A stretch of 61,488 nt of DNA, the filler included. It is 5 parts of 5 records of this genome, joined end to end, with 100 filler letters (N's around TTAATTAATTAA, not from the genome) between each part and the next. Parts side by side here need not be neighbours in the genome. Positions count along the whole stretch, not along the records: positions 12,967 to 35,555 come from SRR22947725_3008; 4 more parts are not named here. The stretch is one strand, 5' to 3'. The position numbers were made by a program, and so were the translations under genes. Of this stretch, positions 5,870-53,337 are shown piece by piece; position 1 is the stretch's first letter; the number at the start of each line of letters is the position of its first letter. Below the pieces are notes generated by a model. That model saw nothing but the letters and a program-made list of their open reading frames with translations. It did no database searches and had not been told where the DNA came from.

Positions 5870-5878
5870 GATTTACGC

Positions 5879-7081
5879 ATGTCCCAAAAGCTAGGTGAGC
5901 AGGTTGGCCCGTACTTCGGCCAGTACGGTGGTCGCTTTGTGCCCGAACCGCTCATCGCAGCCCTAGATCAGCTCTCGCAGGTCTATGAAGAAGCTCGCAA
6001 GGACCCCAAATTCCAAGAGGAGCTGGCGGAGCTCCACCGCACCTACACCGGTAGGCCCTCGATAATCACGGAGGCTCAGCGCTTTGCCGCGGTAACCGGA
6101 GGGCTTCGAGTATTTCTAAAGCGAGAAGACCTAAACCACACCGGTAGTCACAAGATCAATAACGTCATGGGTCAGGCACTGCTTGCCAAACGGATGGGAA
6201 AAAAGCGCATCATCGCCGAGACTGGAGCCGGCCAGCACGGTGTCGCCTCGGCCACTGCCGCCGCCTACTTCGGACTCGACTGCGTCGTCTACATGGGTGA
6301 GGTTGACACCGAACGTCAAGCCCTGAATGTCGCCCGCATGAAACTACTTGGTGCTGAGGTAATTGCAGTAAAGACCGGTTCTCGCACCCTAAAGGACGCG
6401 ATCAATGAGGCGCTAAGAGATTGGGTCGCCAATGTAGAGACCACCCACTATCTACTCGGCACCGTCGCTGGTCCCCACCCCTTCCCGACTATGGTTCGTG
6501 ACTTTCACAGCATTATTGGCAAGGAGTCCAAGGAGCAGATGCTGGAGCTAACAGGTGAGCTTCCAGCTGCGGTTGCCGCCTGTGTTGGCGGTGGTTCGAA
6601 TGCCATTGGCATCTTCCACGCATTCCTGGACGACCCAGATGTTCAGCTATGGGGGTTCGAGGCCGCCGGTGACGGAATCGACACCCCAATGCACGCCGCT
6701 ACCCTGAGCAGGGGAGTCCCAGGGGTGCTTCACGGAGCAATGAGCTACATGCTGCAAGACGAAGATGGTCAGACCTCTGAGTCGCACTCGATTTCAGCAG
6801 GTCTCGACTATCCAGGCGTGGGTCCAGAGCACTCTTGGCTGAAGGACCTGGGCAGAGCCCATTACCACGGGGTAACCGACAGCGAAGCCATGGAGGCCAT
6901 GAAACTGTTGTCCCAGACCGAAGGCATAATCCCCGCAATTGAGACAGCGCACGCCCTAGCCGGCATTCCGCACCTTGCCAAAATACTTCCTGCCGGCGCT
7001 TCGGTACTTGTAAACCTCTCTGGCAGAGGAGACAAGGACATGGAGACTGCCGGTCGTTACTTTGGACTACTTGGAGCATGA
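5879..7081 (+). CDS. trpB: Tryptophan synthase beta chain
   Basis: [52 protein letters not shown]. Confidence 0.98.
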
Positions 7082-7854
7082 GCGTCCAGAGCGTCCTAAA
7101 GACAAACAAGCAGAGCGGCAGAGGAACCCTAGTTGGTTACTTCCCAGCCGGATACCCCACGGTAGAGGACTCGATTGCCGCGTTTGTCGCCCTTGCACAA
7201 AACGGCTGCGACATCCTCGAGGTTGGAGTTCCCTATTCAGATCCCGTGATGGATGGCCTTGTGATTCAGAAGGCGACCGAAAAGGCGCTAGAGAACGGCT
7301 TCAAGCTAAGTCAACTGTTTGAAGTGATTCGCGGTGTGCGTGAGCAGGTAGACACGCCAATGCTTGTCATGAGCTACTACAACCCCGTGCTTCGCTACGG
7401 GGTCGAAAGGTTCGCCGATGAGCTCAAGCAAGCCGGCGCACAAGGCATGATCACGCCAGATCTGATTCCAGATGAGGCATCGAAGTGGTTGGAGTCTGCT
7501 GATAAACACGATCTAGACAGAGTATTCCTTGTCGCTCCAAGCAGTTCGGACGAGAGAGTTAGCGCAAACACCAAGGCCTCACGCGGCTTTGTCTACTCCG
7601 TTTCGACCATGGGCATTACTGGAGAGCGCGCTGAGGTCGACAAGCTCGCAAGGGAAGTAGCAGGCAGGGTTAGCTCAATTGGAAGTGCTCCGACCTGTGT
7701 AGGCGTTGGGGTTTCCACTGGTGCACAGGTAAGAGACGTGAACACATACGCCGATGGAGCCATTGTGGGCACCGCTCTGATCGCTGCCTATGAAAGCAAC
7801 GGGCTTGATGGACTGATTGAAAAGACCCGCGAGCTAGCGAGCGGTTTAGGATAG
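7078..7854 (+). CDS. trpA: Tryptophan synthase alpha chain
   Basis: [28 protein letters not shown]. Confidence 0.97.
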
Positions 7855-7858
7855 CCCG

Positions 7859-8761
7859 GTGGACTTTCTTACCGGCATCCCCTCACCTGAAATTAGCTAC
7901 ATAGATCTTGGGCCTGTGCGCATCCACTTCTATGCGCTCTTTATCCTCACCGGCATCGTAATCGCGACCACGCTCGCAGATTTCAAGCTGCACCGGCGCG
8001 GAGCAGAGCGGGGCAGCATGCTGGACATCGCGCTCTGGGCCGTTCCGTTTGGAATCTTGGGTGGAAGGTTTTTCCACGTAATAACCCACCCAGACGATTA
8101 CTTCTATGAAGGTGCAGATCTACTGGCAACCCTGCGAATTTGGGAGGGTGGCCTTGCTATCTACGGGGCAATATCGATAGGTGCAATTGGTGCATACATT
8201 GGCGCTAGACAGCTTGGGATTCGGTTCCTGACTGTCGCGGACGCCGTGGCCCCTGGAATTCTCATCGCTCAGGGCATAGGTCGCCTCGGTAACTATTTCA
8301 ATCAGGAGCTCTTCGGTCTACCAACCGAGCTACCTTGGGGTCTCGAGATTCCTAGCAGCAATCTCGCATACCCGAACGGGCTCCCGGACGGGCTCTTATT
8401 TCACCCCACTTTCCTCTACGAGATGATCTGGAACCTCACTGGAGCAGCCTTGATTCTGCTGCTGGCTGCAAGACTTAATCTTCAGTGGGGGAAGGTCTTT
8501 GCGCTTTATTTGATTGTTTATTCAACTGGAAGAGTTTGGATAGAAAGTATCCGAATTGACCCCAGTGAGATTATTCTTGGTCTTCGGGTCAACATCTGGT
8601 CAGCGCTGATCGGTGTGACTCTAGGAATCTTGATTTTCTTGGTTCAAACGCGCCGCCACCCTGGCCTCGAACCATCCATCTGGATGCCCGGCAGAGAACC
8701 TGCCACTGAGGGCACAAATGAGCCTCTCGCAGTAGACTCTGCCGAGGACAAAAACAGCTAA
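7859..8761 (+). CDS. lgt: Prolipoprotein diacylglyceryl transferase
   Basis: IWEGGLAIYG, GRLGNYFNQELFG, HPTFLYE. Confidence 0.96.
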   Translation: MDFLTGIPSPEISYIDLGPVRIHFYALFILTGIVIATTLADFKLHRRGAERGSMLDIALWAVPFGILGGRFFHVITHPDDYFYEGADLLATLRIWEGGLAIYGAISIGAIGAYIGARQLGIRFLTVADAVAPGILIAQGIGRLGNYFNQELFGLPTELPWGLEIPSSNLAYPNGLPDGLLFHPTFLYEMIWNLTGAALILLLAARLNLQWGKVFALYLIVYSTGRVWIESIRIDPSEIILGLRVNIWSALIGVTLGILIFLVQTRRHPGLEPSIWMPGREPATEGTNEPLAVDSAEDKNS

Positions 8762-8818
8762 CTTTTACGCCTGGGCCGACGAAGTCCCTACTCAACATAG
8801 GAATTCGATTGGAGAGGC

Positions 8819-11800
8819 ATGCCTGTATCACCATTCCAGCGCTTTAGCACCTTGCCAGCTGCTCAGGGACTCTATGACCCTGCCGCTGAGAAGGATGCCT
8901 GCGGTTTGGCTATGGTTGCCACTCTCAGAGGCCACGCCGGCCATGACATCGTTGAATTGGCTCTCAATTCCCTTCGTAACCTCGAGCACCGGGGGGCTGT
9001 TGGTTCTGACGCTGGAACCGGTGATGGGGCTGGAATCCTCACTCAAATACCAGATCGCTTCTTCCGGGAGGTAGTTGACTTTGAGCTGCCTGAAAGAGGT
9101 AGCTATGGAACCGGATTGGTGTTCCTCGAGGCCGCAACCTCGAAAAAAGACCTTGCCAGCCTCAGCAAATTAGCTGAAGAAGAAGGCCTAAAACTTATCG
9201 GCACCAGGACTCCACCTACGGACCCAGCAGTACTTGGGGACCTTGCTCGCGAGGCGATGCCCGAAATCCAGCAAATCTTCCTCGCAGGTGATGGACTACA
9301 TGGCCTTGAGCTGGAGCGCGCTCTGTTTAGGTTGCGTAAGCGCAGTGAGCGTGAGATTGGGATCTATCACCCCTCGCTGTCTATGCGAACGATGGTCTAT
9401 AAGGGCATGGTTACGACCCTGCAGCTTGAGCCCTTCTATAAGGACCTCTCGGACGAGCGGTTCGAATCACTATTGGCGCTAGTTCACTCGAGATTCTCAA
9501 CCAACACGTTCCCATCTTGGCCACTTGCCCACCCCTTCCGCTTCATTGCCCACAACGGCGAGATCAACACCGTCAAGGGAAATGCGAACTGGATGGCTGC
9601 GAGAGAGTCTCAACTTTCCTCTGAGCTCCTAGGCGACATGGAATCGCTAAAGCCGATTGTCTCCGATGGCGCATCGGACAGCGCAACCTTTGATGAGGTT
9701 CTAGAGCTCTTGGTTCTTGGTGGTCGGTCGCTCCCTCACGCCATGATGATGATGATTCCGGGGGCATGGGAGAAGCAGCTGGACATCGACCCCAAGGTCA
9801 GAGACTTCTTTGAGTATCACTCGATGATCATGGAGCCCTGGGACGGGCCGGCAGCAGTCGTCTTCACCGACGGAAGTCTCGTGGGGGCAACCCTGGACAG
9901 AAACGGCCTCAGACCCGGTCGCTTCGTTGTCACCGAGGACGGCTTCGTGATCCTCGCGAGTGAGATTGGTGTCTCGGACATTCCTGCGGACAGAATCGTG
10001 CGCAAGGGCAGGCTGCAGCCAGGAAAAATGTTCCTAATTGACACTGAGGCTGGGCAAATCATTGAAGACGAGGAGATCAAGTCAGAAGTTGCTTCTCTTG
10101 AGCCCTGGGGAGAGTGGCTTGACGCCGAGAGGATCAACCTCAAAGACCTTCCAGAGCGCGAGCACATTCGCTATTCCTCCGCATCGGTGGCGAGAAGGCA
10201 GCGAGTTTTCGGCTACACCGAGGAAGACCTAAAGGAGTTCATCTCTCCAATGGCCAGATTCGGTCGGGAACCGATTGGTGCAATGGGAAGCGATACCCCA
10301 ATTGCGGCGATCAGCGACCGACCTCGACTGCTCTTCGACTACTTCACACAGCAATTTGCTCAGGTTACAAACCCTCCGCTCGACGCGATTAGGGAAGAGG
10401 TTGTCACATCAATGACCGCCAGCATTGGTCCGGTTAGGAACCTGCTGGATGCTTCGCCAGAGCATGCGAAGCAAATGGTTCTTGACTACCCGATCCTGAC
10501 CAATGACGAGCTTGCTCGTATCAAGCACATTGACCGTGGAAACAACATCGGCAAAGCAATCTCAGTTTCTTGCCTCTACCGCGTCGACGAGGGCGAACAG
10601 GCCCTTCAAGAGCGCCTCGAGGCTATGTGTGACGAGGTAGATCGAGCGCTGGAAGCTGGCGCCACGTTTGTGATTCTTTCGGACCGAGACTCGAACCGCG
10701 AGCTTGCTCCTATTCCATCGCTGCTCAGCTGCTCAGCGATTCACCACCATCTAATTAGGCGTGGAACAAGGACCATGGCCGGACTCATAGTTGAGTGCGG
10801 TGACGCGCGCGATGTGCACCACATGGCAACGCTCCTCGGTTATGGCGCCTCTGCGATAAACCCCTATCTAGCCTTGGAGACCGCCGAGGACATGGTGGTC
10901 AAGGGTCTAATCACAGGCATCACCCCGGAGCGCTCAAGCAAGAACATGATTAACGCGCTCGGTAAGGGCGTACTGAAAATCATGAGCAAGATGGGAATCT
11001 CGACCGTAGCCTCCTACGCAGGAGCCCAGTGCTTCGAGGCGGTTGGACTCTCGCAAAAACTTATCGACCAGCACTTCACCGGAACTATCTCAAAGCTTGG
11101 GGGAGTGGGGCTAGATGTCCTTCATACCGAGATTGAAAAGCGTCACCGTCACGCCTACCCGCTAGAGGGTGCGACCAGCGTCCACATGCCTCTTGAGGTC
11201 GGTGGCGAGATGAAGTGGCGTCGCGAGGGCCCACCGCACCTTTTCAACCCGGAGACTATTTTCAAGCTTCAGCACTCCACCAAGAAGAAGTCCTACGAGA
11301 TCTTCAAGCAGTACACCAGCGCGGTCGACAACCAGGCCGAGAGACTCATGACCATACGCGGTCTGTTCAAACTCCGCACCGACGAGCGCAAGTCCATACC
11401 TATCGAGCAGGTCGAACCGGTCTCAGAGATAGTCAAGCGTTTTGCCACAGGAGCTATGTCAATGGGTGCGATCAGCCCCGAGGCTCACGAGGTGTTGGCA
11501 ATCGCAATGAACCGAATCGGCGGAAAGAGCAACACCGGCGAGGGTGGCGAGTCAGTAGAGCGTTTGCTAGATCGAGAAAAGCGATCGGCAGTGAAACAGG
11601 TAGCATCTGGCCGCTTTGGCGTCACAAGCATGTACCTAACCCACGCCGATGACATCCAGATCAAGATGGCACAGGGAGCAAAGCCTGGCGAAGGTGGTCA
11701 GTTACCTCCTCACAAGGTTTATCCGTGGATTGCAGACCTGAGACACTCAACACCCGGTGTTGGCCTGATTTCGCCACCTCCTCACCACGACATATACTCC

Positions 11801-12866
11801 ATCGAGGACCTCAAGCAGCTTATTTTTGACCTGAAGCGGGCCAACCGCCGGGCCAGGATTCACGTGAAGCTCGTGAGCCAGTTTGGTGTGGGAACGGTAG
11901 CTGCAGGTGTTGCCAAAGCCAAGGCCGATGTGGTCCTTATCTCCGGACACGATGGTGGCACCGGAGCCAGCCCATTGAACTCTCTAAAGCATGCCGGCAC
12001 CCCATGGGAGCTAGGGCTCGCCGAAGCCCAGCAGACGCTGCTGCTGAACGGCCTGAGAGACCGCATAACAGTGCAGGTGGATGGCTCTATGAAGACAGGT
12101 AGGGACGTCATCATCGCAGCTCTTCTAGGCGCGGAGGAGTTCGGTTTTGCTACTGCTCCCCTGGTGGTGGAAGGCTGCATTTTGATGCGTGTTTGCCACC
12201 TTGACACCTGCCCAGTTGGAGTTGCAACTCAGAACCCAGAGCTGCGCGAGAGATTCCGAGGCCAGGCCGATCACGTTGTGAACTTCTTTGAGTTCTTGGC
12301 TCAAGAGGTAAGGGAATACCTCGCAGAGCTGGGCTTCAAGTCTCTGGAAGAGGCAATTGGTCACGCTGAACTGCTAGATGCAAACGAGGCAATCAAGCAC
12401 TGGAAGGCTGATGGATTGGACCTAGCTCCTATCTTTGCGGCTAAGGATATCAAGACAGACTCTTCCCTCTACCGCACCACAGTCCAGGACCACGAACTTG
12501 AGAATCACTTCGACTACCCACTAATCGAAGAGGCTGCGCCCGCACTTGTAGAGGGCAAGAAGGTTTTCATCGAGCGAGAGATCAACAACACAAATCAGGC
12601 AATCGGAACAATGCTTGGTAATGAACTGACCTACAAGTGGGGAGAACAGGGTCTCGAACCTGGAACCCTAGAGCTCTCTCTGACTGGCAGCGCGGGTCAA
12701 TCGCTTGGTGCATTTGTACCTAGAGGGATCAAGATCACGGTGTCTGGTGACTGCAATGACTACGTGGCAAAGGGGCTCTCCGGCGGCACCGTTGTCGTCA
12801 AACCCCCCGCCGGAGCTGCCTATGTTGCTGGCGAAAACGTGATTGCCGGCAATGTCATCGGCTACG
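8819..12866 (+). CDS. gltB: Glutamate synthase large subunit (3' truncated by contig end)
   Basis: DACG N-terminus, [49 protein letters not shown]. Confidence 0.97.
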
Positions 12867-27931: not shown

Positions 27932-28507
27932 TTATTCTGAAGGAGCTATCTTTGGAAAAAAGTACTTAATTAAAGGAACAACTACAAGAGCTGCAAAAAA
28001 TAAAACTATCAAGCAGCCCAATATATCCCCCATTAAGTAGTTCCTTAAGAAGTCGGTCGCATTAATTATCTCTAAATCTTGGCCATTTGAAACAATATAT
28101 GAAGACACAAAAAATGAAATGAGCGTATTAAATAACGCGGTTAAGATTGCTAAAAAAATAAGGTGGTGAAATACAAGTTTCTCACCATCAAAAAAATTAG
28201 ACAGTTTGAAAAACCTCATAGTCGCAATAGCAAGAGCCGGCCCAATTACTCCAGAAAAACTTTGAACCAGCACTACCTGATCAAAAAAAGGTTGAGAGTG
28301 AAACCAAAATTCAGAAAACTGTGCTGCTAATATAGCAGCAACAACTACCCTAAATCCAAACAATAAAAAACATAATGACATCGCTCCTAAGGGGAGCCAG
28401 ATAAGATTGCCTATTAAGGGGTAGGAGGGCCCATTAATTAGATAACAAAAGACGACTATGAAAAAGGTTATTAATTGAGGATGGAACTCTAGAGCTTCAG
28501 ATTTCAT
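27932..28507 (-). CDS. Integral membrane protein, stand-alone MASE1-like domain
   Basis: About six hydrophobic helices, IWLPLG near N-terminus and LMGDILG near C-terminus as in MASE1; SD AAGGAG. Confidence 0.7.
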   Translation of the reverse strand: MKSEALEFHPQLITFFIVVFCYLINGPSYPLIGNLIWLPLGAMSLCFLLFGFRVVVAAILAAQFSEFWFHSQPFFDQVVLVQSFSGVIGPALAIATMRFFKLSNFFDGEKLVFHHLIFLAILTALFNTLISFFVSSYIVSNGQDLEIINATDFLRNYLMGDILGCLIVLFFAALVVVPLIKYFFPKIAPSE

Positions 28508-28583
28508 ATAGCTCTCCTTTCACTAATTTCCGAGCTCTATCAAGAATAGCAAAGTCACTATCTGGTAAGTATCTTTGAGTCAT
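28497..28583 (-). CDS. Putative 28-aa small protein or leader peptide MTQRYLPDSDFAILDRARKLVKGELYEI
   Basis: ATG 28583 with SD-like AAGGGG upstream; stop TGA overlaps the next gene by 11 nt; too short for the ORF track. Confidence 0.55.
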   Translation of the reverse strand: MTQRYLPDSDFAILDRARKLVKGELYEI

Positions 28584-28589
28584 TTTAAC

Positions 28590-28980
28590 CCCTTATCGTT
28601 CGCTTTAAGTCTGTAAATTAGGATACAAAGTCAGACTCGCTACGCTTTTTTGTAAGTGGTCGTTATCATCCAAAGATGCCCCTCCACTTTTTTAAATTTG
28701 TGATGCCCTACACCACAACCTCAACTGTTATTTTTTTGTTTTATTCAAGGTACTGGCAGTCAATCCACAACCTTTCCTACACTTTTTTATAAAGTGGTCA
28801 TTAGGCAAGCCACTTCAGGTTTTTTAGAAGATACTAACCGATTGCTCTGTTGACCTTCATCTGCGAGTATGTTGAGGAAACCACTCTGTATTGATTTGTT
28901 GCTCGCTGCTTGCAGTATCAGTCGAGTCCTATTGGATTGTATTATAGTGAGGTCTCTATAGGCTTCGCTCACTTAATAGC
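28590..28980 (-). ncRNA. Candidate large structured leader or ncRNA (no family recognised)
   Basis: About eight hand-identified helices with G-U pairs only on the minus strand, A-rich linkers, duplicated module, promoter directly upstream. Confidence 0.5.
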
Positions 28981-29000
28981 ACTACATTAATAATGTTTGT

Positions 29001-29033
29001 ACTATACCAAAAAAAATTACTTTTGCAAAGTAA
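29001..29033 (-). promoter_or_regulatory. Sigma70 promoter with overlapping palindrome
   Basis: TTGCAA-16 nt-TATAGT with extended TG; TTACTTT-GCA-AAAGTAA inverted repeat (29017-29033) covers the -35. Confidence 0.6.
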
Positions 29034-29301
29034 GAATCATCTCTCTCTTATCTTCAGAGGATTGATTTGTACTAATAATATTACTTGATGTTAGAAAGAG
29101 AACTGCTCTTTTGATAGTAGATAAAGAATATTTCGAGAAGTATGGATCATTTTTAATTGAAGTAATCGTAACATCAGCATTAGATGTAATATAAGAGAAC
29201 ACTGCTCTTTCTACTTCCGAGTAACCGCTCAAACCAAACTCTTTTTCACACTCATCAAGGGCCTGTCTAAGTTGGAATAACCTGTTAACCGCTTTTTTCA
29301 T
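29017..29301 (-). CDS. Small MarR-like winged-helix DNA-binding protein
   Basis: 94 aa; SLSTIKRAV recognition-helix pattern and EDKR wing motif; SD GAGG. Confidence 0.7.
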   Translation of the reverse strand: MKKAVNRLFQLRQALDECEKEFGLSGYSEVERAVFSYITSNADVTITSIKNDPYFSKYSLSTIKRAVLFLTSSNIISTNQSSEDKREMILTLQK

Positions 29302-29435
29302 TTTCTACCTCAGGAAATATATAAAGAAATTATAAATTACGTCACTTAATTAATTTAGGGCCAGTATACAATAATTTTGTGTACCAGGAAAATCAATAAA
29401 TTTCAATGAGTGCTTACTTTTAATATACCAAGCAA

Positions 29436-36789: not shown

Positions 36790-39118
36790 TTATGCCTCGT
36801 CGTTGTCGTCGTCCGATTTGCCGCCCCCAGCACTTTCTACTTCGCCAACCGGTTTCGGAAGGGACAGCCCTGCCTTCTTCATCTTCCATTTCTGTGCAAT
36901 CTCAAGTAACTTGTTCGCGCTTGTCATGGCCTCTTCATCTGGGAAAATGTAGTCAAAATATTCTTCCCACCCAGACTCGTCGTCTTCCTCCTCCATTTGC
37001 CGCTTCTTCTTCACCCGACGTGGCATCTTATCTGCGACTATTTTTTGAGATGAGTCATCTCCAAACGTGCTTTCAAAGTCCTTCCATGCCTCCAGCAGCA
37101 ACACACGCTCTTCCTTTGGCGCATCGATCTCCTTGAGTGTGTCAGCCCCTCTCTTGAACACATCCCTTGCTTTCTTGACCTCCTCGATTTGCGCCTCGAA
37201 CTGGGCAAGACTCAGCCACACCTTGGGATGTTTTGTCTTATCAAGTAGCCTGTCATATAGTTCGCGCACCTTGTCGTACTCTTCCAGGCGGCTCTCAAAG
37301 TCAATGTAGTGTTTCCAAACCACTTCTGGCATGTCCAACTCCGGTTGGCTTACAGCCAGCTCAAAGATCCTCCTGCACCGGGTATGCTCTTCAAGCTCCT
37401 CTTCCAGCTCAGAGTACTTGGTCCACGCGTCGCAGTTGCTGGGTTCCCGCTGAAGCCAGCTCTGGTACAGCTTTCGCACACGGTCCCAGTTCTGCAACTC
37501 CCGCTCAAGATGAATGTAAGCAACAAATATCTTGGATTTTGGTGCCCGCCCGATAGCGTTGCCAAGAATCTTACGAGCGGCAGACAAGTCACGCATGCGG
37601 ATCTCAAAATGGGCCGCCATTATCCAAACCTTGGAGAAGGAGAAAGACTTGTGTGGAATCACTTTGAGGCACTCACTGTACACCGCCCTTGTCTTATCCA
37701 TATCCTGTGCCGTGAGCTCCTCAAATAACGCGTAGTTTATCCACAAGTAGATATACCTCCTCCAACGGGCCTTTACGGCCGGGGGAATGTTTGCAATTGC
37801 ACGTTCGTACACCTCCCTGACCGCATCAACGTCCCCATGTGACTCCTCCAGCCGGATGTAATCGAACCACACATCGTAGTTGGCCTGGTTTTTCTTAAGC
37901 TCTTCCTCATACTGAAACCGCCGTTTGGATATGATCACGTCCTCGACGCCCTCCCGCGTTCCATGTTGCTTCTCAAAAGTAGTGTAAGTGCGGTAGAGCT
38001 CGGCCGCCTGCTGCTTTGGAATAAGGTCTAGCGCGTACCTGCATTGACCAGATAATAACAGCAAATGTGTAGTCAAACGGGGGACTTGGAGGGACAGCAA
38101 ATGTATAGTCAAACGGGGGACTTGGAGGGGCAGCAGAGGCTCAATGTGGGAGCGAGTGGAGGCATGCCATGCCGTGCAGACAGCTTCGATCGATCAATCG
38201 TGATCTTACGCACTTGAATATGACTCGGGCACGCTCGTACTCCTTGGCCCGCTCCTCAAACTGTGCAAATGCGATGAAGAGCGCCTCGTCGTGGTTGAAC
38301 TCGGTGCCCTCTAGGCTCTGCAGTGCACGCTCCATGACAGACCGAGCACGTGTAATGTTTCTGCGTTTTTCCTCAAACTTGGCGTACTTGAGCCACGCCG
38401 TAGTGGTGTTGTGACACACGACAAATCGCTCCATGATCAACCGCGCGTTCTCAACCTCGTTGTACCGCATCTCGAGCCGTACGTAGCTTGTCCACCCGTT
38501 GTAGTCAGGTTCCCATTCCATCCAGCGCTCAAACACCTGTCGTGCACCCGGGACATTGCCCAGCATCTCCTCCATGTAAGCATACTTGTACCACAGCTGG
38601 TCTACTCGTGGCAGCAACGTCACCGCACGGTCCCAGATATTCCGTGCGTGGTTGATGTGCTTGTGCTTCATCTCCATCTCCGCATACTTGAGCCATAGCG
38701 ATGGTGTCCGGTAATCCACCTCAAGTACCCTCTCCCAGATGGATCGTGCCCGACGGAACTCGCCCTGTTCCTCCTCCCACTTAGCGTACTTCGTGTAGTG
38801 TGTGAGCGTGGTGCGAGAGTGCCGAATATGATCCTCAAACTCCTTGCGTTTCCGCATCCTATACATTTGAAGCTCATCTTCGTCAGTAATTTTCTGTACT
38901 GGAGGCTTGGGATCGACCTCGCGCATGTCCTGTGCCTCACGAAGAATTTGCTCTGCCGTGATCTGGATCGTGGCCGCGCTCTTATTCTTCACCTTGGCTT
39001 GCCTACCCAACGGCTTCGCCGCCCCCGCATCTGTGAACCTGTTACCCTCCGTAAGACGGGATTCCCCGCCCGCCATGGACTCCATGCCTTGGACGTTCAG
39101 TCTGTCCATTTCGCTCAT
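36790..39118 (-). CDS. CRNKL1: Crooked-neck/Clf1 HAT-repeat splicing factor (spliced, ~717 aa)
   Basis: [32 protein letters not shown]; intron 38039-38213 (GTGCGT..CAG) restores IFKYALD. Confidence 0.95.
38058..38129. repeat. Tandem 36-bp duplication inside the crooked-neck intron
   Basis: ACAGCAAATGTRTAGTCAAACGGGGGACTTGGAGGG twice, one mismatch. Confidence 0.9.
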
Positions 39119-39259
39119 GGTTGCACAACCCCTCACCGTCGGTGAAGTTCAAACAATGTCCTCATCACCAATCGCTGATCGTTTTTGTTGAAGTAATTTG
39201 CACAAAAGCGTCGCCGACGCCCACGTCACCGTTCGTCCCCCCCAATCTCTTCCTGAATC

Positions 39260-40540
39260 ATGTCCGTCGTGTGGACTGGATTGTTCGCTGTGTTGGTCAC
39301 CGAGGTGAGCTCTGGCATGGATTTTTCTTACATCTGATGGTTTGTGATCGCGTTGATACCATCTGCTGAACTGTAGTGCACTTGCTGGGTGCCTCCATGA
39401 TTATTACCGAGTGAAGTTGAAGCGCGAGGATGTCCCATCTGATAGACTTTGTATCGGGATGGGCTGACGGTGTGGGAATGTTGCAGTGCGTGGTCTTGAC
39501 CTTTTTACTTATGCCGCTCCCGCACAACATCAAGCGGTCTGTGGTTGAGTTCATCGCGAATTCGTCGATGATGGCCAACGGACGCAGCGTGCGGATGTTT
39601 TTTTACGCGTGTACGCTTGCAATGTTTGTCGAGAGTGTACGACAAGCCCAGAACATCGGCGGGGAGGAATCCAACGACGTGGGTGCCCATGGCCGTTCCT
39701 CACGCGCTCGCGCCCACACATGTTTACTCCTCACGTGCACGTACAAATGCACCACTGTACACGACAACACGCCCACACGCCCACACGTCCACAGGCTTCT
39801 TTTGACGCGTTCCATCGGGCTCAGATTCGCAAGTTTCGTGCTCAGCGTAACGTTTACCTGACATTTTTTGCCCTTTTCTTTGTGTTTGTGATCGAGAGGA
39901 CATGCAAACTTATTATCAGCCAGTCCAAGGCAGAAAGGATGTTAGAGGTGTTGCAGAAGCAGGCACAAAATAACCAGAAAGAGTATGTTAGGTTGGCTAC
40001 AGAGAAGGAGGGCTTGTCCAAAAGTAGCAAAGAGACCAAAGAGGTTGTGGAAGAGGCAACGAAGGCCAAGAAGCAAGCAAAAGAACAATTGAAACAGGCA
40101 GAGAACCAACAAGCTTCGTTTGTGCAGTTGATCGAAGAGCTTACCGAGGTGAAGGAGGCCAACAAGACCCTTTCAGACGAGAACGAAACGTTCCGCACCG
40201 AGCTGAAGAGCGTCAAGGATGACAAGGATGCACTTCAAAGAATCGTTGACGGTGAGTAAGGATGCTTCGGCCCACAGTAGGGGAAAGGTGGGAACGATGG
40301 GTACGTTGTGACTTGGGACATGTCATGTTGATATCAACAGACATCAGTCTAGGGCACGTTTAGCAGTGGTCTGCTTGTAGACTTGACGCGTGAGACAGGC
40401 CGCGGCCATATGCACTCGCTAAGTCTTGTTTCCGATGACCGTTTTCTCAAGCGTGCACGGGTGCGTTTACAATGTGCATTTACACACTCACACATGCAGA
40501 CTACAACGATAAATACGGCGACATAAAGAAGGACAAATGA
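39260..40540 (+). CDS. BCAP31: BAP31/BAP29 ER membrane protein (4 exons, ~244 aa)
   Basis: Exons 39260-39304, 39487-39678, 39795-40251, 40500-40540; MSVVWTGLFAVLVTECVVLTFLLMPLP, KFRAQRNVYLT, coiled coil, C-terminal KKDK ER-retrieval motif. Confidence 0.9.
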
Positions 40541-40546
40541 TTTCGA

Positions 40547-40596
40547 CGAGGAGGAGGAGAAGGAGGAGGAGGAGAAGGAGGAGGAGAAGGAAGAGG
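40547..40596. repeat. Purine (GAG/AAG) microsatellite downstream of BAP31
   Basis: GAGGAGGAGGAGAAG-type tract. Confidence 0.85.
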
Positions 40597-40714
40597 TCAT
40601 GCACCGTACTGGACACCCCCGTGCATGGTTTTGACGGAACTGCACCACTGCGTCAACCCTTTCCTGGAACTGGCACACACTGGGTCTAATGAACTCGCAG
40701 CTTCACCAGGACAT

Positions 40715-40775
40715 TCACCCGCACAATCACCAACACATCACCCGCACAATCACCAACACATCATTAGCACAATCA
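40715..40775. repeat. 23-bp tandem repeat
   Basis: TCACCCGCACAATCACCAACACA twice plus a partial third copy. Confidence 0.85.
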
Positions 40776-41255
40776 TCGACGCTCCCACCGCCACAATCAC
40801 GACCACTGAATCAGCACAATCATTGGATCGAGGTTTCGAATTTTCCGAGAACAATCTGGCTTACTGTGCCAATCCTAACTGTGCCAAGAGCCCTTCTCAT
40901 TTTTCATTTTCGCTTTTTTGACATGAAGTCAATCACTTTTGATGATGTGGCCAGGACGAGTCGGTGTATCTCGTCGTCAACTGGGACAATCACGAGATGC
41001 ACGCAACTGGCACAATTGCCACTGAAATGAATGTACATGGTCATAATACCAATGGAATATATTACACTGTCCTGGACACGATCACGACCCCGGGCCATCT
41101 GCAAATGAAGGCTTCAACGGCGAAATACCTTCACTTTTTCCCATTTATAATGTGTCAGGCGTACGGAATTTCTAGAGTCGCAAACGCTGACATCGATCGA
41201 TCGATATTGCGAGGGCAGCTCGTTGCGTGACCGCATGACAAAATCGTTAGCAGGA

Positions 41256-44200
41256 CTAGCTCATTGCGAGACTGCATAACAAAATCGTTAGCAGGAGAAA
41301 CGAGCTGACATGGCTTCGACCTGCAGTGTTCGGCTCCACGTCTGGACCATCGTCGCGCAGGTCATCGTCGGTCCTATGAACTACCTCTTGCGTCTTGTTT
41401 GTCTCCTCGGCAGCCTTCCGTGCCGCTTCTGCCTCGTATGCTGTGGCGTCCTCGACGGCCCCCTCGCCTCCAAGCGGCACGTGGGTGGGGTTCCTTTCCT
41501 GCGCCTGCTGATCTAGCTCAGCCTTTTCATCCTGAATCGAATGTTTCTCGGCATCATCAGCTCTCTTCTCCGCCAACTCATATTCCAGTCCGGGAACCTT
41601 CCCTGCACAGCTCCCAGTTAGATTCGTGCTGTTGTCGCACATGCATAAGCGACGATCCTCATCACACTGCCCATTTGCCTTGCATCCCCCAGGGCATCCT
41701 GCTGGCCCTGCGTGGTACAGCCACAGGTTACTACGCGCATCACTATATCCATACCCACCAAACATTGCCAGCGTTCCATGGGTTTCAGCCATGGCCATTC
41801 CCGAACGGGCCAGCGGAACAGGTGGATCACCACCTGTAGGGCCCACTCTTGTCCAGCGGTTGGTGAGCCGTGTCCATCTCCAAAGCTGAGCTGGGAGGAG
41901 CAGAGGCTCTCCGCTCATGTTCTTCGTGTTTGAATCGCTAGAAGAACCACCGAATATGTACGCAGCCGAACCAATGCCAGTGGCTGCGAAGTGATCCCGG
42001 CGGCCCGCTTTGACCTGGTATTCGACGCTACTGTCAGTGACAGGATTAACGATAAGCCGTGGGAGAGGCGCAATTCGCTGCCATCTGTTTGTACCTACAT
42101 TGTACAACCAAGCGTCTGCTAGTGAGCTACCAGTGCCATCAACACCGCCCGCGACAAAGACACTGTAAGAGCCGTCAGCATCCACAAGAGACGCGCTACC
42201 ATGGAACGCCCGAGGCGTAGGCATCTCCCAAAGCCCGTCTTTGTGCACATGGGGATGAGGGTTGATTGCCATCCAGGCCCGAGTCCACATATTGTACTCC
42301 CACAGATCGCCCGATGGTTGGTTTGTTGACGCATCGATCCCACCAAAAAGGATGGCACTGTATTGTAGAGGAACCAACGTATCGTTCACATCCAGGCTGT
42401 ACCTCACCAACTCCATGGAATGCCCAGAGCGGCCGCCCACTGCGGTGGACACACTGACAGCCTCCTTGTAGGGATTGATTCCTGCTGCAGAAAACAATTC
42501 CCGCCGGTCCGCCTCGGTCAGCCCACGCGAAGCCGCCTCCGACTGCCACTTGTTGATCTGACTATCTGCATCGCGGAACCAGTGCCCCACTTTGATCCAC
42601 TTAGGTGTGCCCATCAATTCGAGCATCCACATGTCATCAAGTATGCGCCCACCCAACTTGTCCGCCCCGCCATAAATATACATCTTGCCACCGTACGCAA
42701 ACGAAGCGTGGTGGACCCGAGCCTGAGGTGCCGAACCAACCACTCTTCTCTCTTTGACGATCCCCTTGAAGTGAGGGTTGGACTGGTACACCGTACTGAC
42801 AGGATTGGGTGGATGTGGCAGGTTGTGCGGAAGGGTCACCTCGAAGATACGATTTGTCACCCTGATTGATTCGTTGCCACTGCCAGGCACGCCAACAAGC
42901 CCACCAAAGACAATCATCACAGGATGCACCTCATCAGGTCGTTGAACGGCCACACTGCTGTGCCCGTACCAGGATGAGGGCGTTGTGGACATGGACTTGA
43001 CCATAGCCTCGACACCCCCAGACATGAGCGCAGCCAGCTCGTCAGCGGTAAGCGAAGATAGAGCACCAGCCAGATCTGCAGCTTCTTCTGCGGTCAGACC
43101 CAACGAAACTAGCAAATCTGTGCTCAGGCCTCCTTTTCCTGCGGCCCAGCCAGCGGCGTCCCACGTCGCGCCGAGCAGCTGAGAAGCAAGAGCGGCGAAC
43201 ACCACCGAAGGATCGATTGTACCATCCTTACCCATCATCGCAAGTAGATCTCGCATGGCCGCCGCCGTGCCTTGGTCATCTGATCCACCAGTGGGCACGA
43301 GCCTACCATCCGGCCCAATGACAAAGCCGGGGTGATGGGATGGGCGATACCCCGCATTGTGAGCTGGATCGGTTACATTCGTCACATCTCCTCGATAAGT
43401 GGCGTAGAAACCGTGGGGCATGTTGTCAGGATATTTGGGCACTGGCTCATCCACAGGTACGACGCCCGGCATGGTGTAATCCAAGTTGGGAGCCGTGAAT
43501 GACAATTCTCGACTCTCCGCCACGGCTGGAAACTTGTTGTTCTTTTTGCTCTTATGATTGTAAATCTGTTTGTTCCCGACCTGCACTAGAGCCTGCCCGG
43601 CCCTCAACCTTGCAGCGTCATGTGTACCATCATCTTTGGTACCGGGAGTCGCATCATCATCCTGACCTGAAGACATTTCCATCTCACCCGCTGCCAGTTT
43701 TGCGATCAGGTCAAAGAGCTTCTTGAGCTTATCCGCCACGACACCAAGAGGTGGAGGTGATGTCGGAAGTCGGAACCATCGACCCGTCCGCAATGTGTCG
43801 CACGTTTCGCCCTTGAACGATGGCATACACGAACATTCGCGGAGCTCATTGTTACAGATACCGCGGGGTGCGCACTTGCCATAACACCCGTCCATTCCAA
43901 TCGCCCCTTGCATTTGCTCTGTCTCAAACTCCCCAGCAAGATCCCCACCCGCTGCCCCGCCTGCATTTTCCCCATTTCCCTCGTCCTCTCCTTCCACTTC
44001 AGCATCACCACTAGAGCCCGCAGCCCATGAATTATCAATTTTCCACTTGCGTTTCTTCGATCCAGCCCCTCCTTCCGCCTCGGCCGCCTCCCCTGTCCCT
44101 TCCCCTCCCCCGTCTGTCCCTTCGCCTCCCCCGTCAACCGCAGATGCAGCATCTTCCCTATCAGTGCCGTTGACGGCTGGCTGGCCAGTCACTGTATCCG

Positions 44201-46126
44201 CACCAGCGGACGCCGCGTCCACAATACTCTCCCCCTCGCTCTCACCAATCCCCTCACCAGCCCCATTCCTTGCTGGGTGGGCTTTGTGAATTTTGCTTCC
44301 GAGCAGAGAGGACTCGTTGCAACTGACACCTGCCCATTGAGCTGGGTCTGCGCATACACAGCTGCGTGTGGAGTAGTCACACTGTCCATGGACGCAGGGA
44401 TGCATGCAGTTTGGTCCAACAGTGAAAGACCACACCTCCTCGAAAGCTGTGTTGTGTGCGAGTCCTCCATAAAGCCATAGAAGCCCACCGTGTGGGACAA
44501 GTGTGTGCATTATACGGGTCTTTGGATGCACGGCGTTCAGAACATGGACCAGCTGCCAGTGGCGGGTTGTCAGGCTGAATTGCCAAAGCCCGGGATCCAC
44601 CTCATCAATCAACAGACCCTTTTCTGTCTTGTAGGTAGTCATACCACCCAACACAAAGAGCCGATCATCATACATGGTCATGCCGTGAAAGTCACGTGGT
44701 GGAGGAAACACATTCCCCAATGCTGGAACTGGCGCCCAAGTCCTGTGTGAACATGATCCAATACAGTCAAGGGAATCAGTACCCTGATGACCGAAGGCAT
44801 CAGGTGGAGGAAAAAGGGATCCTGGAGAGGGGGTCCATTATCGACACTATCACCTCATGCCAAGTCGCCTTATAAAAAAACTGTGCACGTGCGTGCGATA
44901 CATATTCAGACCGCTTGAAATTGACACACCTTGTTTGAATGTGGAAGCTCCAGACGTCATTGAGCATCGTATCGTCCGTCGTGGAGCCCCCAAAGATGAT
45001 CACCGATCCACCCGCATCTTCTGCCGGCAGATTCTGCGCACGACGCTCCGCCCCATGCCACTGATCACCGGATACAAAGGTGCGGCTGCTCTGGGCCATC
45101 AACATACCACTCCGCTCCAACGGCTGCACATCTGACGATGGCAGCAAGAGTTTCCACTCCATGCTGTGCAAATCCAGTCGCCATGTATCGCCTCGCACGC
45201 CGTCTGCATCTTGCCCGCCAAATAGCAACACGCAGGCCACAGAATAGCCTGTGTAAACACCGGGAGTATTAAGAGGACAGGTAGTCATGCCGAACGACTT
45301 CCGAGGAGATGGGTACTTGGGCAGGGCCGATACAGTGTCACCGTACACACCACTGGCTGGCATTAGCGCACTGCTCGAATGAGGTAGCATTTCGATGTCT
45401 TTTACTGCGTGATCAGAGTACAGGCGGTGCACGCCTATGTCAGAGCAAGCAGAAGCTGATGAGAGTGTACATTCGATTACATACAGCCCTGGAAAGTTTG
45501 AGGTTCGCAGCATAGTGACTCATACAGATGAGATGGGCACTGGGATGCGTGCATTTGTCTGTGCATGAATAGGAGGCTCAAAGACGACTGTTGACAGAAA
45601 GCACAAAACTAAAAGTCATGAAATCCATACAACCCCATGTGATGGCACCTGTGAAATCGACTGGGCGGTTGTCGGAAGCCAGATGCCACGTCCATCGTGT
45701 CAGGTTGAACATCCAGAGATCATTCAGAAGGGTTCCGTTGGCGGTCACACCCCCAAATATGAACATGCCATCATCAACCAGGGCAGCACCATGCAAGCTG
45801 CGCCCCTCTGGTGCAGCGCTTCCTTTGGGAGCCATCACCTGCCACTCTCGTGTCTCGAAAAAGAAACGAAGCACGTTCTTGCTGCTGGTCGGCTTCGAGG
45901 TCTTGGAGTCTATAACTACCCCTCCAAATGTGATCATGGCACCACCATATACAACCGCGGTATGGCCGTGTCGAGGGTGGGGTGTTGACAGCCCATTATC
46001 AGGCACAACCTGCTCCCATCTTCCCAGACGAGGGTTGGACCAGAGGTCAGCCTCCGTGTGAGTTGCTTCTTGTGCTTGAACTAAATTAACGATCACAGCG
46101 AGCCAGAAATACACAGTGGCTCTCAT
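41256..46126 (-). CDS. Secreted or surface Kelch-repeat plus EGF-like protein (3 exons, ~1507 aa)
   Basis: Exons 46126-45649, 45488-44930, 44742-41256 join in frame; signal peptide MRATVYFWLAVIVNLVQA; many FGG/YGG Kelch blades; three EGF-like Cys modules; hydrophobic C-terminus. Confidence 0.85.
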
Positions 46127-46297
46127 GGGAGAAACAAAACGCAAATGTGAAAAACCCTGAGAGGAATCGCACCCCTCCGCCCGGCCGGACGTCCCCTCAA
46201 CGTCCAGCGGAGAGCCCTCGGAGAGGAGCTGTGAAAGTAGAAAAATCAAGTTAACATACAAATGCTTTAATTCCCCCAGAGCTCTTCTGAAAACAAG

Positions 46298-48950
46298 ATG
46301 CTCGTGGGGATGCAGGGGGCTTGGTTTCTCTTGTTATTGGGTTCTTTCGCGGTGCCAAAGGCAGGGGGTGCCACCTTCAGAAAGGTGTCTGAAACTAAGG
46401 GACTGCCTTTGCTGATGCCCACACAGCAAGACCGAGCTTACCCCAGGGAGTTGCAACTCCTTGAACGCCCCAAAAAGGACAGGTCCCGCTCTCGCGGGGC
46501 CCATCCTCTGCACATTGGTCCAGCTGGTGGTTTGGCTCTTTATGCTCCATCAGCGACCTCGATACCAGGTATTGCAGCTGTTGACACCACTGGAAAGACC
46601 TCGTCCGTTTCCGGCCAAAATGACAAGCCCGACGCAAAGCCACCAAGGTCGCGGGTACTTATTCTTACAGTACCCAAAGATAAAGTGATCCTGGGCTACA
46701 ATGAAAGGGAAAACAAATGGGGTTCGCTCGGAGGACACCTGGAGAAAGGCGAGGATTGGGAGTTTGCCGCCATGAGAGAGCTGCAGGAGGAGTCCATGCT
46801 CACCGCAGCCGACTTGCAGGGTGGACTGATCAAAATTTCAAATGAACCCGACGAAAACAACCAGCACTGGTTTTATGGGGTTCTGATAGAAGGCAAAGGA
46901 CCAAAGGACCTGGATGCATCCCACGATGCGGAGTATCAGGTCACAGGAAATCCTAAGGGCGACTTCAAAGAGTTCGCGTTCAACAGTCTTCCGGAGAATA
47001 CCTTCCCAGATGCCAAACGCATCATCAATGACCGCCTGATGCCCGCGTTGAAAGACAGCAGCGCCAATGTACCCGCTGCAGATACGGCCAATGGACAAAC
47101 AGATGCTCCGTCCGTGGATGCTGTCCCACCACTTGCCCCAGAGACAACTGTTCAGCCAACCTCTGTTACCGCATCAGCTGCTTTAGCACTGACCGATGCA
47201 CTGAGCAGTAATATATCGCCCGAGGCCACATCGGCCGCCCTAGCGGAGGTGCTTGGAGGGTACACTTCAAACGTGCAGTTGGGAGCAGAAGTGAAAGGAG
47301 AACATGGCCCTGACCCGGTTTGGACCGTCGATGACCTTCAAAAGGTCGAAGTTATGCGATCCGGAGACCTGTACGGTGGGGGCGAGGTCATTCGCATACG
47401 TGTTCCTCCGCCTTCAGGGAACGCCCTCTGCCCACCCAAGAACAAGACATTGCCTCCCTTCGATCGGACCAAACGTCCAATCGCGAAAACGGAAACTCAC
47501 TACAATTACTTTGGCAAAAGGAAAGGCGAATTTCGCGGTGAGAACGAAGACTTGCTTATCACCCCACCGGAACCAATCTTGGATCCATATTTCTGGCTCC
47601 GTGACGACCGCCGCCGAGATCCGGAGGTGCTGCATCATTTGGTGAGTGCTCTCAGTTCGAAACCTGGTTGATTTTGCCGCCACCAGAATTCACGCCGACA
47701 GTCTTGGTGAGGCAGTTGTAAACAGGTCGCCTCCTCCGTCAATGAGGGACCGTCTCACAATAATGTGGTTCCATTTGTCCTATGTCACGTGTTACGCTTC
47801 GCAGGAGCATGAGAACGCGTACTTTGACTACACAATAGAGAAGACGCCTGGAGCGACCTCGTTGAAAAATGATCTGAACATGGAGCTGAAGAGCTACATT
47901 GAGGATGAACATCTCACGGTCCCATACCAATACGGGCCTTTTCTGTACATGTCTGATCTACCAAAGGACAAGGACTACACAATACACTATAGAAAGAGCG
48001 TTAGCCAGAGGAACAGCTTCATGATGGTACAGGGTAAAGTTACAGCCGACTGGGAGGTGGTTTTGGACGAGAACGAAATTTGCAAGGGTTTGGAGATGTG
48101 CGAAATCAGCGGCGTGTCCGTGTCGCCGCCGCCTTCAACCCGGGTCGCTTACATCCTTGACACCACGGGCTCCGAGAACGGCACATTATATGTGGTCGAG
48201 CTTCTGACAGGTAGGATCAAATCAACGCTTGAGGGTGTATCTGACTTCGAGTGGTCCAACTCAGGGGCCGCTCTCTTCTATATGAGATTGGATGATGCGG
48301 GCCGACCAGACAGAGTCTACTCGCATTTAGTGGGGGGGCGTCCTGAGAGGGACGTGCAGATGTTCGTGGAGCCGGACCCAGTTTTCGAGGTTGGCATTCG
48401 CCAGTCTAAAAGCGGCCGATTTTTATTCATCGAGTCATCATCGTCGGACACAAGCGAGCTTAGCTACATTGACATGCACGAGGGTGGAGAATTCGATGCT
48501 GAAAGGGTGCAGGTCTTTGCCAACCGCACGAATGGGACGATCTATTCTGTCGATGATCATAAGGATGTCTTCATCATACACACCAACTATGATGGTTGCA
48601 AGGAGTTCAACATTATGACGGTCGGTATTGGAAACATCACAAGTCCAGATTCCTGGCGAAACCTGACTAATTTCGAGTACCGTCGCGACCGGACGGTCAA
48701 CTCTGTGGATGTATTCAACGGCCACTTGGTCGTCCATGGACTCATGAACGCGATGACCCAGGTGTGGATCTTGCCACTTTCGGAAGATAGCATGTCGACT
48801 GTAGGCATGTATCGGGTTCCCTTCGAGGATGAGGTTTACGAGATTGAAATGGGCGGAGGCAACCGCAAGTTCGACGCGCCCTTTGTACGGCTCAGGATAT
48901 CCTCGATGACTAAGCCCGAAACAATTTTTGATCACGACTTCACCACCCGT
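46298..48950 (+). CDS. Signal peptide-Nudix-oligopeptidase B (S9A) fusion, spliced, 3' truncated
   Basis: Exon 46298-47641, intron GTGAGT..CAG 47642-47804, exon 47805-end; Nudix box GHLEKGEDWEFAAMRELQEE; OpdB N-terminus DPYFWLRDDRRRDPEVLHHLEHENAYF then beta-propeller (VVLDEN, DTTGSE, SSMTKP). Confidence 0.85.
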
Positions 48951-49050
48951 NNNNNNNNNNNNNNNNNNNNNNNNNNNNNNNNNNNNNNNNNNNNTTAATT
49001 AATTAANNNNNNNNNNNNNNNNNNNNNNNNNNNNNNNNNNNNNNNNNNNN
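48951..49050. other. Artificial contig-joining spacer
   Basis: N44-TTAATTAATTAA-N44. Confidence 0.98.
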
Positions 49051-49077
49051 CGGGTTCAATTCCCGCCGCCTCCACCA
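49051..49077 (+). ncRNA. ssrA: tmRNA 3' end (T-arm and acceptor stem)
   Basis: CGGGTTCAATTCCCGCCGCCTCCACCA matches the tmRNA tRNA-like 3' end; only 27 nt visible. Confidence 0.75.
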
Positions 49078-49096
49078 AATTTAAAATAATATGAAT

Positions 49097-53334: not shown

Positions 53335-53337
53335 GGA

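Follow-up and report, generated by a model that had tools for sequence, protein, structure and literature searches.

What is encoded by some 390 nucleotides (nt) that hold no long open reading frame (ORF), begin shortly past a predicted promoter and precede a membrane-protein gene? This question is raised by positions 28590-28980, minus strand, of a 61,488-nt stretch of DNA from a marine Pseudothioglobus (hereafter the window, meaning the whole stretch that was analyzed). The original prediction, made by eye from the DNA letters, described a densely folded single domain closed by long-range helices and proposed a large noncoding RNA (ncRNA) or a cis-regulatory leader. Our analysis indicates that the region is very probably a cis-regulatory leader, by whichever mechanism it operates. 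Judged from its relatives, this leader appears to be a chain of local hairpin-plus-pseudoknot units, of which only the first ~125 nt represent a widely conserved motif.

A conserved pseudoknotted motif opens the leader

The conserved motif, which we term unit 1, spans positions 28853-28978 on the minus strand, as do all leader elements described below. It comprises a hairpin (P1) with a pseudoknot (PK1), a helix (P2), an A-rich linker (AAnAAAUnAAUACAG) and a weaker pseudoknot (PK2). A 98-nt piece of it (28881-28978) keeps 90-91% identity between genomes that agree in only 71-75% of the flanking coding sequence, and a pattern capturing its core occurs once in the window versus 0.00 times in shuffles. 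BLAST matches of 78-85% identity extend through 28814-28925 in approximately 20 loci, among which L182 and L186 are viral.

P1 (28946-28973) pairs AGUGAG with CUCACU around a 16-nt loop. Its stem varies among relatives yet remains paired, as AGUGAG/CUCACU, AGUGUG/CACACU, AGUGG/CCACU, AAGUG/CACUU, AGGUG/CACCU or AUGAGG/CCUCAU. Within the P1 loop, CCUAU (28958-28962) is complementary to AUAGG (28928-28932), and these segments form PK1 (28928-28962); an A-rich strand lies between them, and the 3' strand is directly 5' of P2. PK1 occurs in matched variants, including CCUAU/AUAGG, CCAAU/AUUGG, CCGAU/AUCGG, GCAUU/GAUGC, GAGGCU/AGCCUU and GCUCU/GGAGC. When loops were paired with their own tails, the mean helix was 4.52, versus 3.34 ± 0.18 for swapped combinations, and none of 5000 permutations reached the observed value.

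P2 (28902-28926) is formed by CUCG-A-CUG and CAG-CGAG and encloses a 10-nt loop, AUACUGCAAG. Across 52 distinct sequences, 99.2% of cells in this helix are paired, and four of its seven pairs have changed on both sides (for example, C-G, A-U and U-A, or U-A, A-U and G-C). Its covariation score was reached by none of 500 shuffles, and shifting the partner columns lowered pairing to 11-59%. The original prediction had proposed a search for homologs and covariation as a check; relatives were indeed found, and within unit 1 both P2 and PK1 covary.

The A-rich linker that follows (CAACAAAUCAAUACAG, 28886-28901) is conserved and nearly invariant. In the 52 sequences A84, A85, A87, A88, T90, A93, T94, C96, A97 and G98 (numbering of the first sequence) do not vary, an invariance owed in part to the pattern by which metagenome and viral members were retrieved, since it fixes those bases. 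Beyond the linker, CUCGCAG (28861-28867) is the candidate 3' strand of PK2, a weak element whose partner would be CUGCAAG (28909-28915) in the P2 loop. In the family at large, PK2 takes the form of a P2 loop CUGCNAG with ACUUGCAG beyond a variable hairpin, P3. Changes on both sides of PK2 are few, with one clear case (CUGCUAA/UUAGCAG in L025). A further hairpin, P4 (28827-28858), pairs GAAGGU with AUCUUC and includes one G-U pair; its sixth pair, U-A, does not form in 5 of 14 close relatives.

Unit 1 thus combines covarying helices with conserved unpaired bases, as riboswitches generally do. Comparison of its members shows it to be a conserved RNA motif made up of P1 with PK1, P2 and the A-rich linker.

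The motif recurs in host genomes, metagenomes and phages

A BLAST search of 61 related genomes gave matches in six. We then relied on a covariance model, R1, built from nine sequences, which matched 11 of 43 Pseudothioglobus genomes, 52 of 80 listed metagenome loci and 9 of 11 IMG/VR viral loci; 79 genomes from 18 other genera of the family yielded no match to it. The metagenome loci had been fetched by a fixed sequence pattern that at least 120 stretches fit, and the 80 listed were searched together with flanks of as much as 900 nt. At least 54 distinct sequences were counted as unique copies, and a scan for terminators took in 58 unique members. A blastn search with the viral-type motif against 50,697 deposited phage records returned no match. 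A generic scan of the window for a hairpin, an A-rich run and GG was abandoned as too unspecific, giving 43 matches on both strands.

The 54 unique copies fall mainly into two genomic contexts. Twenty-five follow the gene for a 94-amino-acid (aa) protein at the host locus, where a winged helix-turn-helix (wHTH) gene, the leader and a MASE1-like membrane gene are arranged as in the window. Twenty-four follow one of three kinds of XRE-type helix-turn-helix gene in phage early regions; two are at other host places, and three have no upstream ORF within the locus. Leftward in these phage regions run a RusA-like gene and a replication initiator; rightward, the XRE regulator is followed by the motif and then by small unknown genes, a Sak-like annealing protein and SSB. 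Several of the phage-type copies are on IMG/VR contigs of 18-45 kb, and in the viral contigs L183, L184, L185 and L187 the motif is 3' of the XRE gene and 5' of the early genes. By eye, −10-like hexamers are present just upstream of P1 in L006, L079, L185 and L187. Other host copies stand before ugpB (equivalog, E 1.5e-153), before a gene whose 161-aa product is secreted, and before an inverse-autotransporter gene (IAT_beta, E 7.6e-18).

The leader of one Pseudothioglobus chromosome (G023) and that of a viral contig (L182) are 86% identical over 276 nt, and the genes flanking them are unrelated. Placed at the 5' end of transcripts, the leader thus behaves as a self-contained module. Across the genus, the leader between the 94-aa gene and the membrane gene ranges from 40 nt to more than 500 nt and takes several unrelated or divergent forms; the syntenic intergenic length is, for instance, 158 nt in L003 versus 509 nt in the window. 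In the shorter homologs, the motif lies 55-100 nt from the start codon.

Some loci carry other structured sequences. A different type of leader follows the 94-aa gene in L030 (genome G020), L036, L039 and L040 and is missed by R1. It consists of a hairpin AGAGGC...GCCUCU, an A-rich tail with CUAAG, and a hairpin ACGAG...CUCGU; its loop CUUAG complements CUAAG, giving the plan of unit 1 in a different sequence. The host copies L007, L079 and L061, which stand ahead of ugpB, the secreted-protein gene and the inverse-autotransporter gene, have a conserved stretch in common about 60-200 nt past the motif, GCGCAGCAU..CAGAGU..GAUUG.UGCUGGCA..CAAUC, which allows several mutually exclusive pairings, and a hairpin CUGAUA../..UAUCAG precedes the gene. 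This stretch suggests that the host-type leader is a larger structured RNA than unit 1 alone. In L006 (G011), the MASE1-like gene has 116 codons versus 196 in the near-identical metagenome contig L059, and is possibly truncated or frameshifted.

Further units extend to the ribosome-binding site

Past unit 1, the leader goes through two more rounds of a hairpin, an A-rich strand and a segment pairing back into the loop, and its final element adjoins the Shine-Dalgarno (SD) sequence of a 28-codon upstream ORF (uORF). Unit 2 (28776-28815) consists of hairpin P1' (28792-28815), an A-rich tail and a candidate pseudoknot, PK1' (CCUA 28802-28805 with UAGG 28776-28779), which was noted by eye and is invariant in 14 close relatives. 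The unit continues with P2' (28747-28774; AAGGU/ACCUU with an inner UGG/CCA), an A-rich linker and P3' (28692-28724; 13 pairs, three of them G-U, and one mismatch). Other leaders have AGAGGUG/CACCUCU (L005) or AGUGGU/ACCACU (viral L184 and L025) at the place of P2', as found by folding in L005 and L184 and by eye in L025. The inner stem of P3' differs in sequence but is paired in L025, L005, L184 and L187.

In unit 3, hairpin P1'' (28654-28689) has an inner CAUC/GAUG stem and is followed by ACAAAAAAGCGUAG; its tail is AAAAAAGCGUAG, then come P2'' and the SD sequence. In three members (G001, G023 and viral L182), a P1''-type hairpin plus AAAAAGCGUAGGAG is immediately followed by the start codon, which makes the tail the SD sequence there. 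P2'' (28608-28637) pairs AGUCUG with CAGACU, and the stems AGUCG/CGACU (L025), AGCUG/CGGCU (L005) and GGUCG/CGACC (L184) take its place elsewhere. Its loop CCUAAU (28617-28622) is complementary to AUAAGG (28591-28596) in the SD region; similar pairings between loop and SD region were seen in L005 (UCCU/AGGA) and L187 (CUGU/ACAG), all by eye. Hairpins with other stem sequences also occupy corresponding places in the divergent leaders of G067, G005 and the viral loci L184 and L187.

Local hairpins rather than one large domain

All five local hairpins of the original prediction (28940-28978, 28791-28816, 28747-28774, 28692-28724 and 28654-28689) were recovered on the minus strand by RNAfold. This includes the core stem of the first (28968-28973/28946-28951), the 13 pairs with one mismatch of the fourth and the inner CAUC/GAUG stem of the fifth. 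Against 200 shuffles each, their z-scores were, in the same order, −1.5, −3.2, −1.7, −4.3 (0 of 200 shuffles) and −3.3, values biased upwards because the windows were chosen after the hairpins had been seen. The claim that several G-U pairs work on the minus strand also held, with three in the 28692-28724 stem and one in P4. Every homolog found lies on the same strand as its downstream gene, and this orientation is constant in all members.

The larger architecture fared less well. Described as densely folded, the 391-nt region has a minimum free energy (MFE) of −90.5 kcal/mol versus −83.4 ± 5.6 kcal/mol for dinucleotide-shuffled sequences (z −1.26), and 8 of 100 shuffles were as stable; the plus strand gave z −0.75. 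Stability beyond that of shuffles was one of the checks named in the original prediction; on this count the region fails, so the case rests on comparison with relatives. There, the proposed long-range closing helix GGACTCG/CGAGTCT (28923-28929/28633-28639) is invariant in the 14 close relatives and has, by eye, no equivalent in the divergent three-unit leaders of G067 and G005; moreover, GGACTCG is the 5' strand of the covarying P2, and the two helices would thus compete. A second proposed helix, GATACTG/TAGTATC, has uncompensated breaks in 2 to 5 of the 14, whereas the G-U pair of the local P4 stem becomes G-C in 2 of 14. A third, GCGAG/CTCGC, reuses the 3' strand of P2, which is variable in the wider family (CGAG, CGAU, CGUG, CGUU, UGUG and CACG) while the supposed partner keeps ACU(U/C)GCAG. 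Rather than a single domain closed by long-range helices, the comparative data point to a succession of local units.

The original prediction had seen no signatures of RNase P, tmRNA, 6S, SRP or the common riboswitches, and searches of Rfam agree with this. None of the 4227 models of Rfam 15 matched anywhere in the window at its gathering threshold, and a permissive search of 28200-29400 returned five chance-level rows, the best at E 0.37-8.4 and 13-16 bits versus thresholds of 35-68.

Transcription and genomic setting

The leader lies in a low-GC block (~36% GC). On the minus strand, a pfkB-family kinase gene is followed by the 94-aa gene, 433 nt without a long ORF, the uORF and the membrane-protein gene; mfd is convergent beyond the latter. 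A sigma-70-like promoter (29001-29028, minus strand) consists of TTGCAA, a 16-nt spacer and a TG-extended TATAGT, with 9 of 12 matches and TG before the −10 element; promoter-like sites are not enriched across the region (5 found versus 6.0 expected). Unit 1 begins about 20 nt past this promoter.

Contigs from four RNA libraries, each from a different study, cover the leader. One, of 893 nt (28283-29172), spans the leader together with parts of the upstream gene and the membrane gene. Another, of 315 nt (28676-28993), has an end about 7 nt past the −10 element, where the promoter predicts the start, although contig ends are weak evidence. Gaps in cover within single runs are uninformative.

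The uORF (28497-28583, minus strand) is preceded by the SD sequence AAGGGG (28589-28594), and its stop overlaps the ATG of the membrane gene (28507). Changes in it among close relatives are few, several of them synonymous (ACT/ACA, GAT/GAC, AGT/AGC) and some replacements. Its product resembles the N-terminus of 65-86 aa proteins encoded 3' of the motif in phage-type contigs, a short and weak similarity of 25-39% identity with the shared pattern M..[RK]Y[LI][LP][DE]SD...R[EK].VK; the phage-type proteins also have a hydrophobic tail. The uORF may be a truncated remnant of such a phage-type small gene, retained for translational coupling.

The gene served by the leader encodes a 191-aa multi-pass membrane protein (27932-28507, minus strand). 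Its Pfam MASE1 score of 18.7 bits is below the 29.8 cut-off, and none of 304 homologs found in a homolog search has a Pfam domain, all being annotated as "hypothetical protein" at most. Upstream of the leader, the 94-aa protein (29017-29301, minus strand) is winged-helix-like by weak matches (16.4 bits to SarA/Rot, under the cut-off) and matches phrog_37711 (PHROG 37711), a phage family of unknown function, at E 8e-10. Its gene is present in 29 of 43 genomes of the genus, where it adjoins the membrane gene; together with the phage match, this suggests that the whole small cassette may be phage-derived. NCBIfam gave no match to the three proteins of the window, and PADLOC, run on the 94-aa, the 191-aa and five phage-context proteins, returned chance-level rows alone (E 0.0025-0.0027).

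The window as a whole is a mosaic in GC content, with approximately 0.54 at 1-12500, 0.36 at 13000-36000, 0.54 at 37000-48500, 0.34 at 49000-55500 and 0.56 from 56000. The nearest genome compared has 22% of the sampled words of the window in common. The mosaic could reflect a chimeric assembly, concatenated contigs or large foreign islands.

A possible cis-acting switch and its alternatives

The promoter at 29001-29028, the structure reaching the SD sequence of the uORF, the lack of an Rfam match and the RNA contigs over the region all fit a cis-regulatory leader. How it would act is a more tentative matter. The mechanism we favor, with somewhat less than even confidence, is an RNA switch, riboswitch-like or of the attenuator type, whose building blocks would be the local pseudoknot units. 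The region would be the transcribed 5' leader of a two-cistron operon (the 28-codon uORF and the 191-aa membrane protein), acting in cis. The 3' strands of its pseudoknots could alternatively pair with downstream elements, and whether a pseudoknot is formed would then set transcription or translation of the downstream genes. The alternative partner would be a terminator stem in some members and the SD region in others, and the balance could be shifted by a small ligand, an ion, a protein or the transcription complex itself.

Arrangements of both kinds can be seen by eye. In L183 and L087, a stem AGCAGC...GCUGCU followed by UUUUUU begins with the PK2 3' strand CUAGCAG, and the ugpB copy (L007) has a 9-pair hairpin and a U-run between motif and gene. 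The P1 loop CCUAUAG, whose other pairing is PK1, is complementary over 7 nt to the SD region CUAUAGG in L003 and L004. In the window, the corresponding interaction would join the P2'' loop to AUAAGG in the ribosome-binding site of the uORF.

Several observations weigh against this switch. A simple terminator-like hairpin within 330 nt is present in only 5 of the 58 unique members, and no terminator-like site was found between promoter and uORF (28590-28990) in the window, leaving its own leader without one. The MFE of the whole region is no better than that of shuffles. Units 2 and 3 are recognizable by sequence in close relatives alone, at 89% identity or above, and among the 14 close relatives no pair in them has changed on both sides. 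PK2 is paired in 78% of cells, with its middle position unpaired in 44 of 52 sequences. Fetching by pattern overstates the conservation of the linker, and the shuffle and permutation tests on P2 and PK1 are inflated by the relatedness of members, though the number of distinct matched PK1 variants is hard to explain by relatedness alone. The RNA-library contigs show neither strand, ends nor level, and DNA carry-over is possible. Finally, the downstream genes are mixed (phage early genes of unknown function, MASE1-like, UgpB, an adhesin-type autotransporter and a secreted protein) and do not share one pathway; this differs from a classical metabolite riboswitch and weakens the case for one. Cyclic di-GMP, considered as a ligand in view of the MASE1-like and adhesin genes, is unlikely because none of five Pseudothioglobus genomes (four 99% complete, one 91%) contains a GGDEF gene (PF00990); positive controls were found.

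The same mixture of genes is where an RNA that modifies RNA polymerase would have its appeal, as it would explain why unrelated phage and envelope genes share the motif. In this main rival reading, unit 1 may, though we think it unlikely, be a factor-independent processive antiterminator like put of phage HK022 or EAR (eps-associated RNA) of Bacillus, in which the nascent RNA would stay on RNA polymerase and allow read-through of terminators or pauses in leader and operon. The motif comes right after promoters heading the rightward early operons of phage-type contigs, as putL and putR are reported to do (PMC9378689). Both of its two hairpins have an A-rich strand that might fit into a minor groove; its loop and linker bases are kept across phages with different proteins, as expected if the partner were a conserved host machine; terminator-like hairpins lie downstream in some members; and host copies precede envelope genes. 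However, 53 of the 58 members lack a simple terminator within 330 nt, the likeness to put and EAR is one of description rather than of sequence or model, and pairing of pseudoknot strands with SD regions (L003 and L004, and P2'' in the window) is unexpected for an RNA that rides on polymerase. Two resemblances to consensus sequences were dropped: AAGCGUAGCGAG, which is similar to the ops element, and UAACAAAU, which is similar to boxA, are stretches that are variable or base-paired in the family. An RfaH-type partner was likewise rejected as a general factor, a second NusG-like gene being present in only one of the five genomes. That gene (G062:C1:679335-679595; 168-aa frame, 70 bits) is possibly an RfaH- or LoaP-type paralog.

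Repetition of the module three times in one leader, with A-rich single strands between hairpins and a last module overlapping the SD sequence, raises the rather doubtful alternative of an operator whose hairpin and A-rich units are binding sites for an RNA-binding protein. The protein could be a global regulator of the host, for example Hfq, ProQ or S1 of the ribosome, or else an early protein of a phage, and 49 of the 54 unique copies do follow a wHTH or XRE regulator gene. As these regulators are of unrelated kinds, wHTH and three XRE types, a partner common to all copies cannot be among them. In Gammaproteobacteria, repeated leader sites are usually read by CsrA; none of the five genomes yielded a gene for it (PF02599), by which we discarded a CsrA-regulated leader as well as a Csr sponge, and in a rough count GGA motifs were not enriched. 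The covariation of PK1 also indicates an RNA fold rather than a linear site.

It is improbable that the region is a stable ncRNA, acting in trans or as a scaffold, whose place before the membrane gene is fortuitous. Large, structured and supplied with A-rich linkers, the region could resemble one, RNA-library contigs lie over it in four runs, and the 28676-28993 contig is wholly inside the leader. Yet the contig 28283-29172 joins the upstream gene, leader and membrane gene, and the motif is only 55-100 nt from the start codon in shorter homologs. Of the two forms first proposed, the cis-regulatory leader thus fits, and a free-standing large ncRNA is less likely because no terminator-like site precedes the uORF and homologous leaders run into start codons.

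Still less probable is a role at the DNA level, as operators of the neighboring regulators or as a site of phage-host recombination. The element does adjoin genes for DNA-binding regulators and has evidently moved between phage and host, but P2 and PK1 keep their RNA pairing through double compensatory changes, G-U pairs can form on just one strand, and orientation to the downstream gene is constant. That a 61-codon GTG frame (28787-28972), open in the window and with a related open frame of 87 codons in L002, encodes a small protein is scarcely credible, as the 158-nt leader of L003 and L004 has no listed open frame of 25 or more codons across the motif, members of the family differ by 1-2 nt gaps in the tail of P1 and around P3, and variation tracks base pairing rather than codons.

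Relation to known RNAs

Riboswitches built on H-type pseudoknots (preQ1-I, SAM-II and SAM-V) have a short hairpin, an A-rich 3' strand and a tail that pairs into the loop and lies at or near the SD sequence. The present leader resembles them in each of these features. It differs in loop sizes and conserved bases, no Rfam model matches it to E 10, and its downstream genes do not indicate queuosine or methionine metabolism. The Bacillus EAR element is linked to read-through in an exopolysaccharide operon, and in being tied to an operon for cell-envelope products it is comparable to our motif; EAR, however, is found inside the operon and in Bacillales, and no Rfam element reached E 10 on the motif or the hairpins. 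With the sponge RNAs CsrB and RsmZ the leader shares many hairpins, A-rich linkers and a length of ~400 nt. Unlike these RNAs or CsrA-controlled leaders, it occurs in a lineage where no CsrA gene was found in five of five genomes, and its loops have no regular GGA.

In genomic position, a parallel is offered by put, an RNA that binds the zinc-binding domain of beta' and so suppresses termination, protein factors not being required. The putL and putR RNAs are reported to be cis-acting structured RNAs located just downstream of the early promoters of HK022, a temperate-type phage; they have two stem-loops, stem I with a minor-groove triplex, and work without a dedicated protein (PMC9378689). The put RNAs are ~70 nt long and lack pseudoknots, a word that is absent from the text of that paper (PMC9378689). 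Our motif likewise lies shortly downstream of an early promoter in phage early operons (L183, L184, L185 and L187). By this comparison of descriptions, it differs in having a core of ~125 nt with one well supported and one weak pseudoknot, and in that copies also precede chromosomal genes.

Implications

The leader is most likely a new family within a familiar class of RNA, the structured leaders that regulate in cis, and its distribution across phage and host is unusual. Literature on riboswitches in Pseudothioglobus and Thioglobus and on noncoding RNA of the SUP05 group revealed no such RNA in its titles and abstract openings, with subscription journals mostly uncovered. Pseudothioglobus belongs to this SUP05 group, an abundant marine lineage. 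What is added here is a motif supported by covariation and without an Rfam counterpart, in at least 54 distinct sequences, about half of which are in phage-type early regions.

The 86% identity of host and viral leaders with unrelated flanks suggests that leaders have been exchanged between phage and host. We speculate, at long odds, that marine phages and Pseudothioglobus exchange a new self-sufficient RNA module, either an antiterminator that rides on polymerase or a phage early leader placed before host envelope genes. In the latter case, the host genes for the membrane protein, UgpB and the adhesin would respond to a cue of phage early transcription, such as infection. Should the motif prove to be a put-like antiterminator or a new class of riboswitch, it would offer a handle on early gene control in the phages of an organism that is hard to culture.

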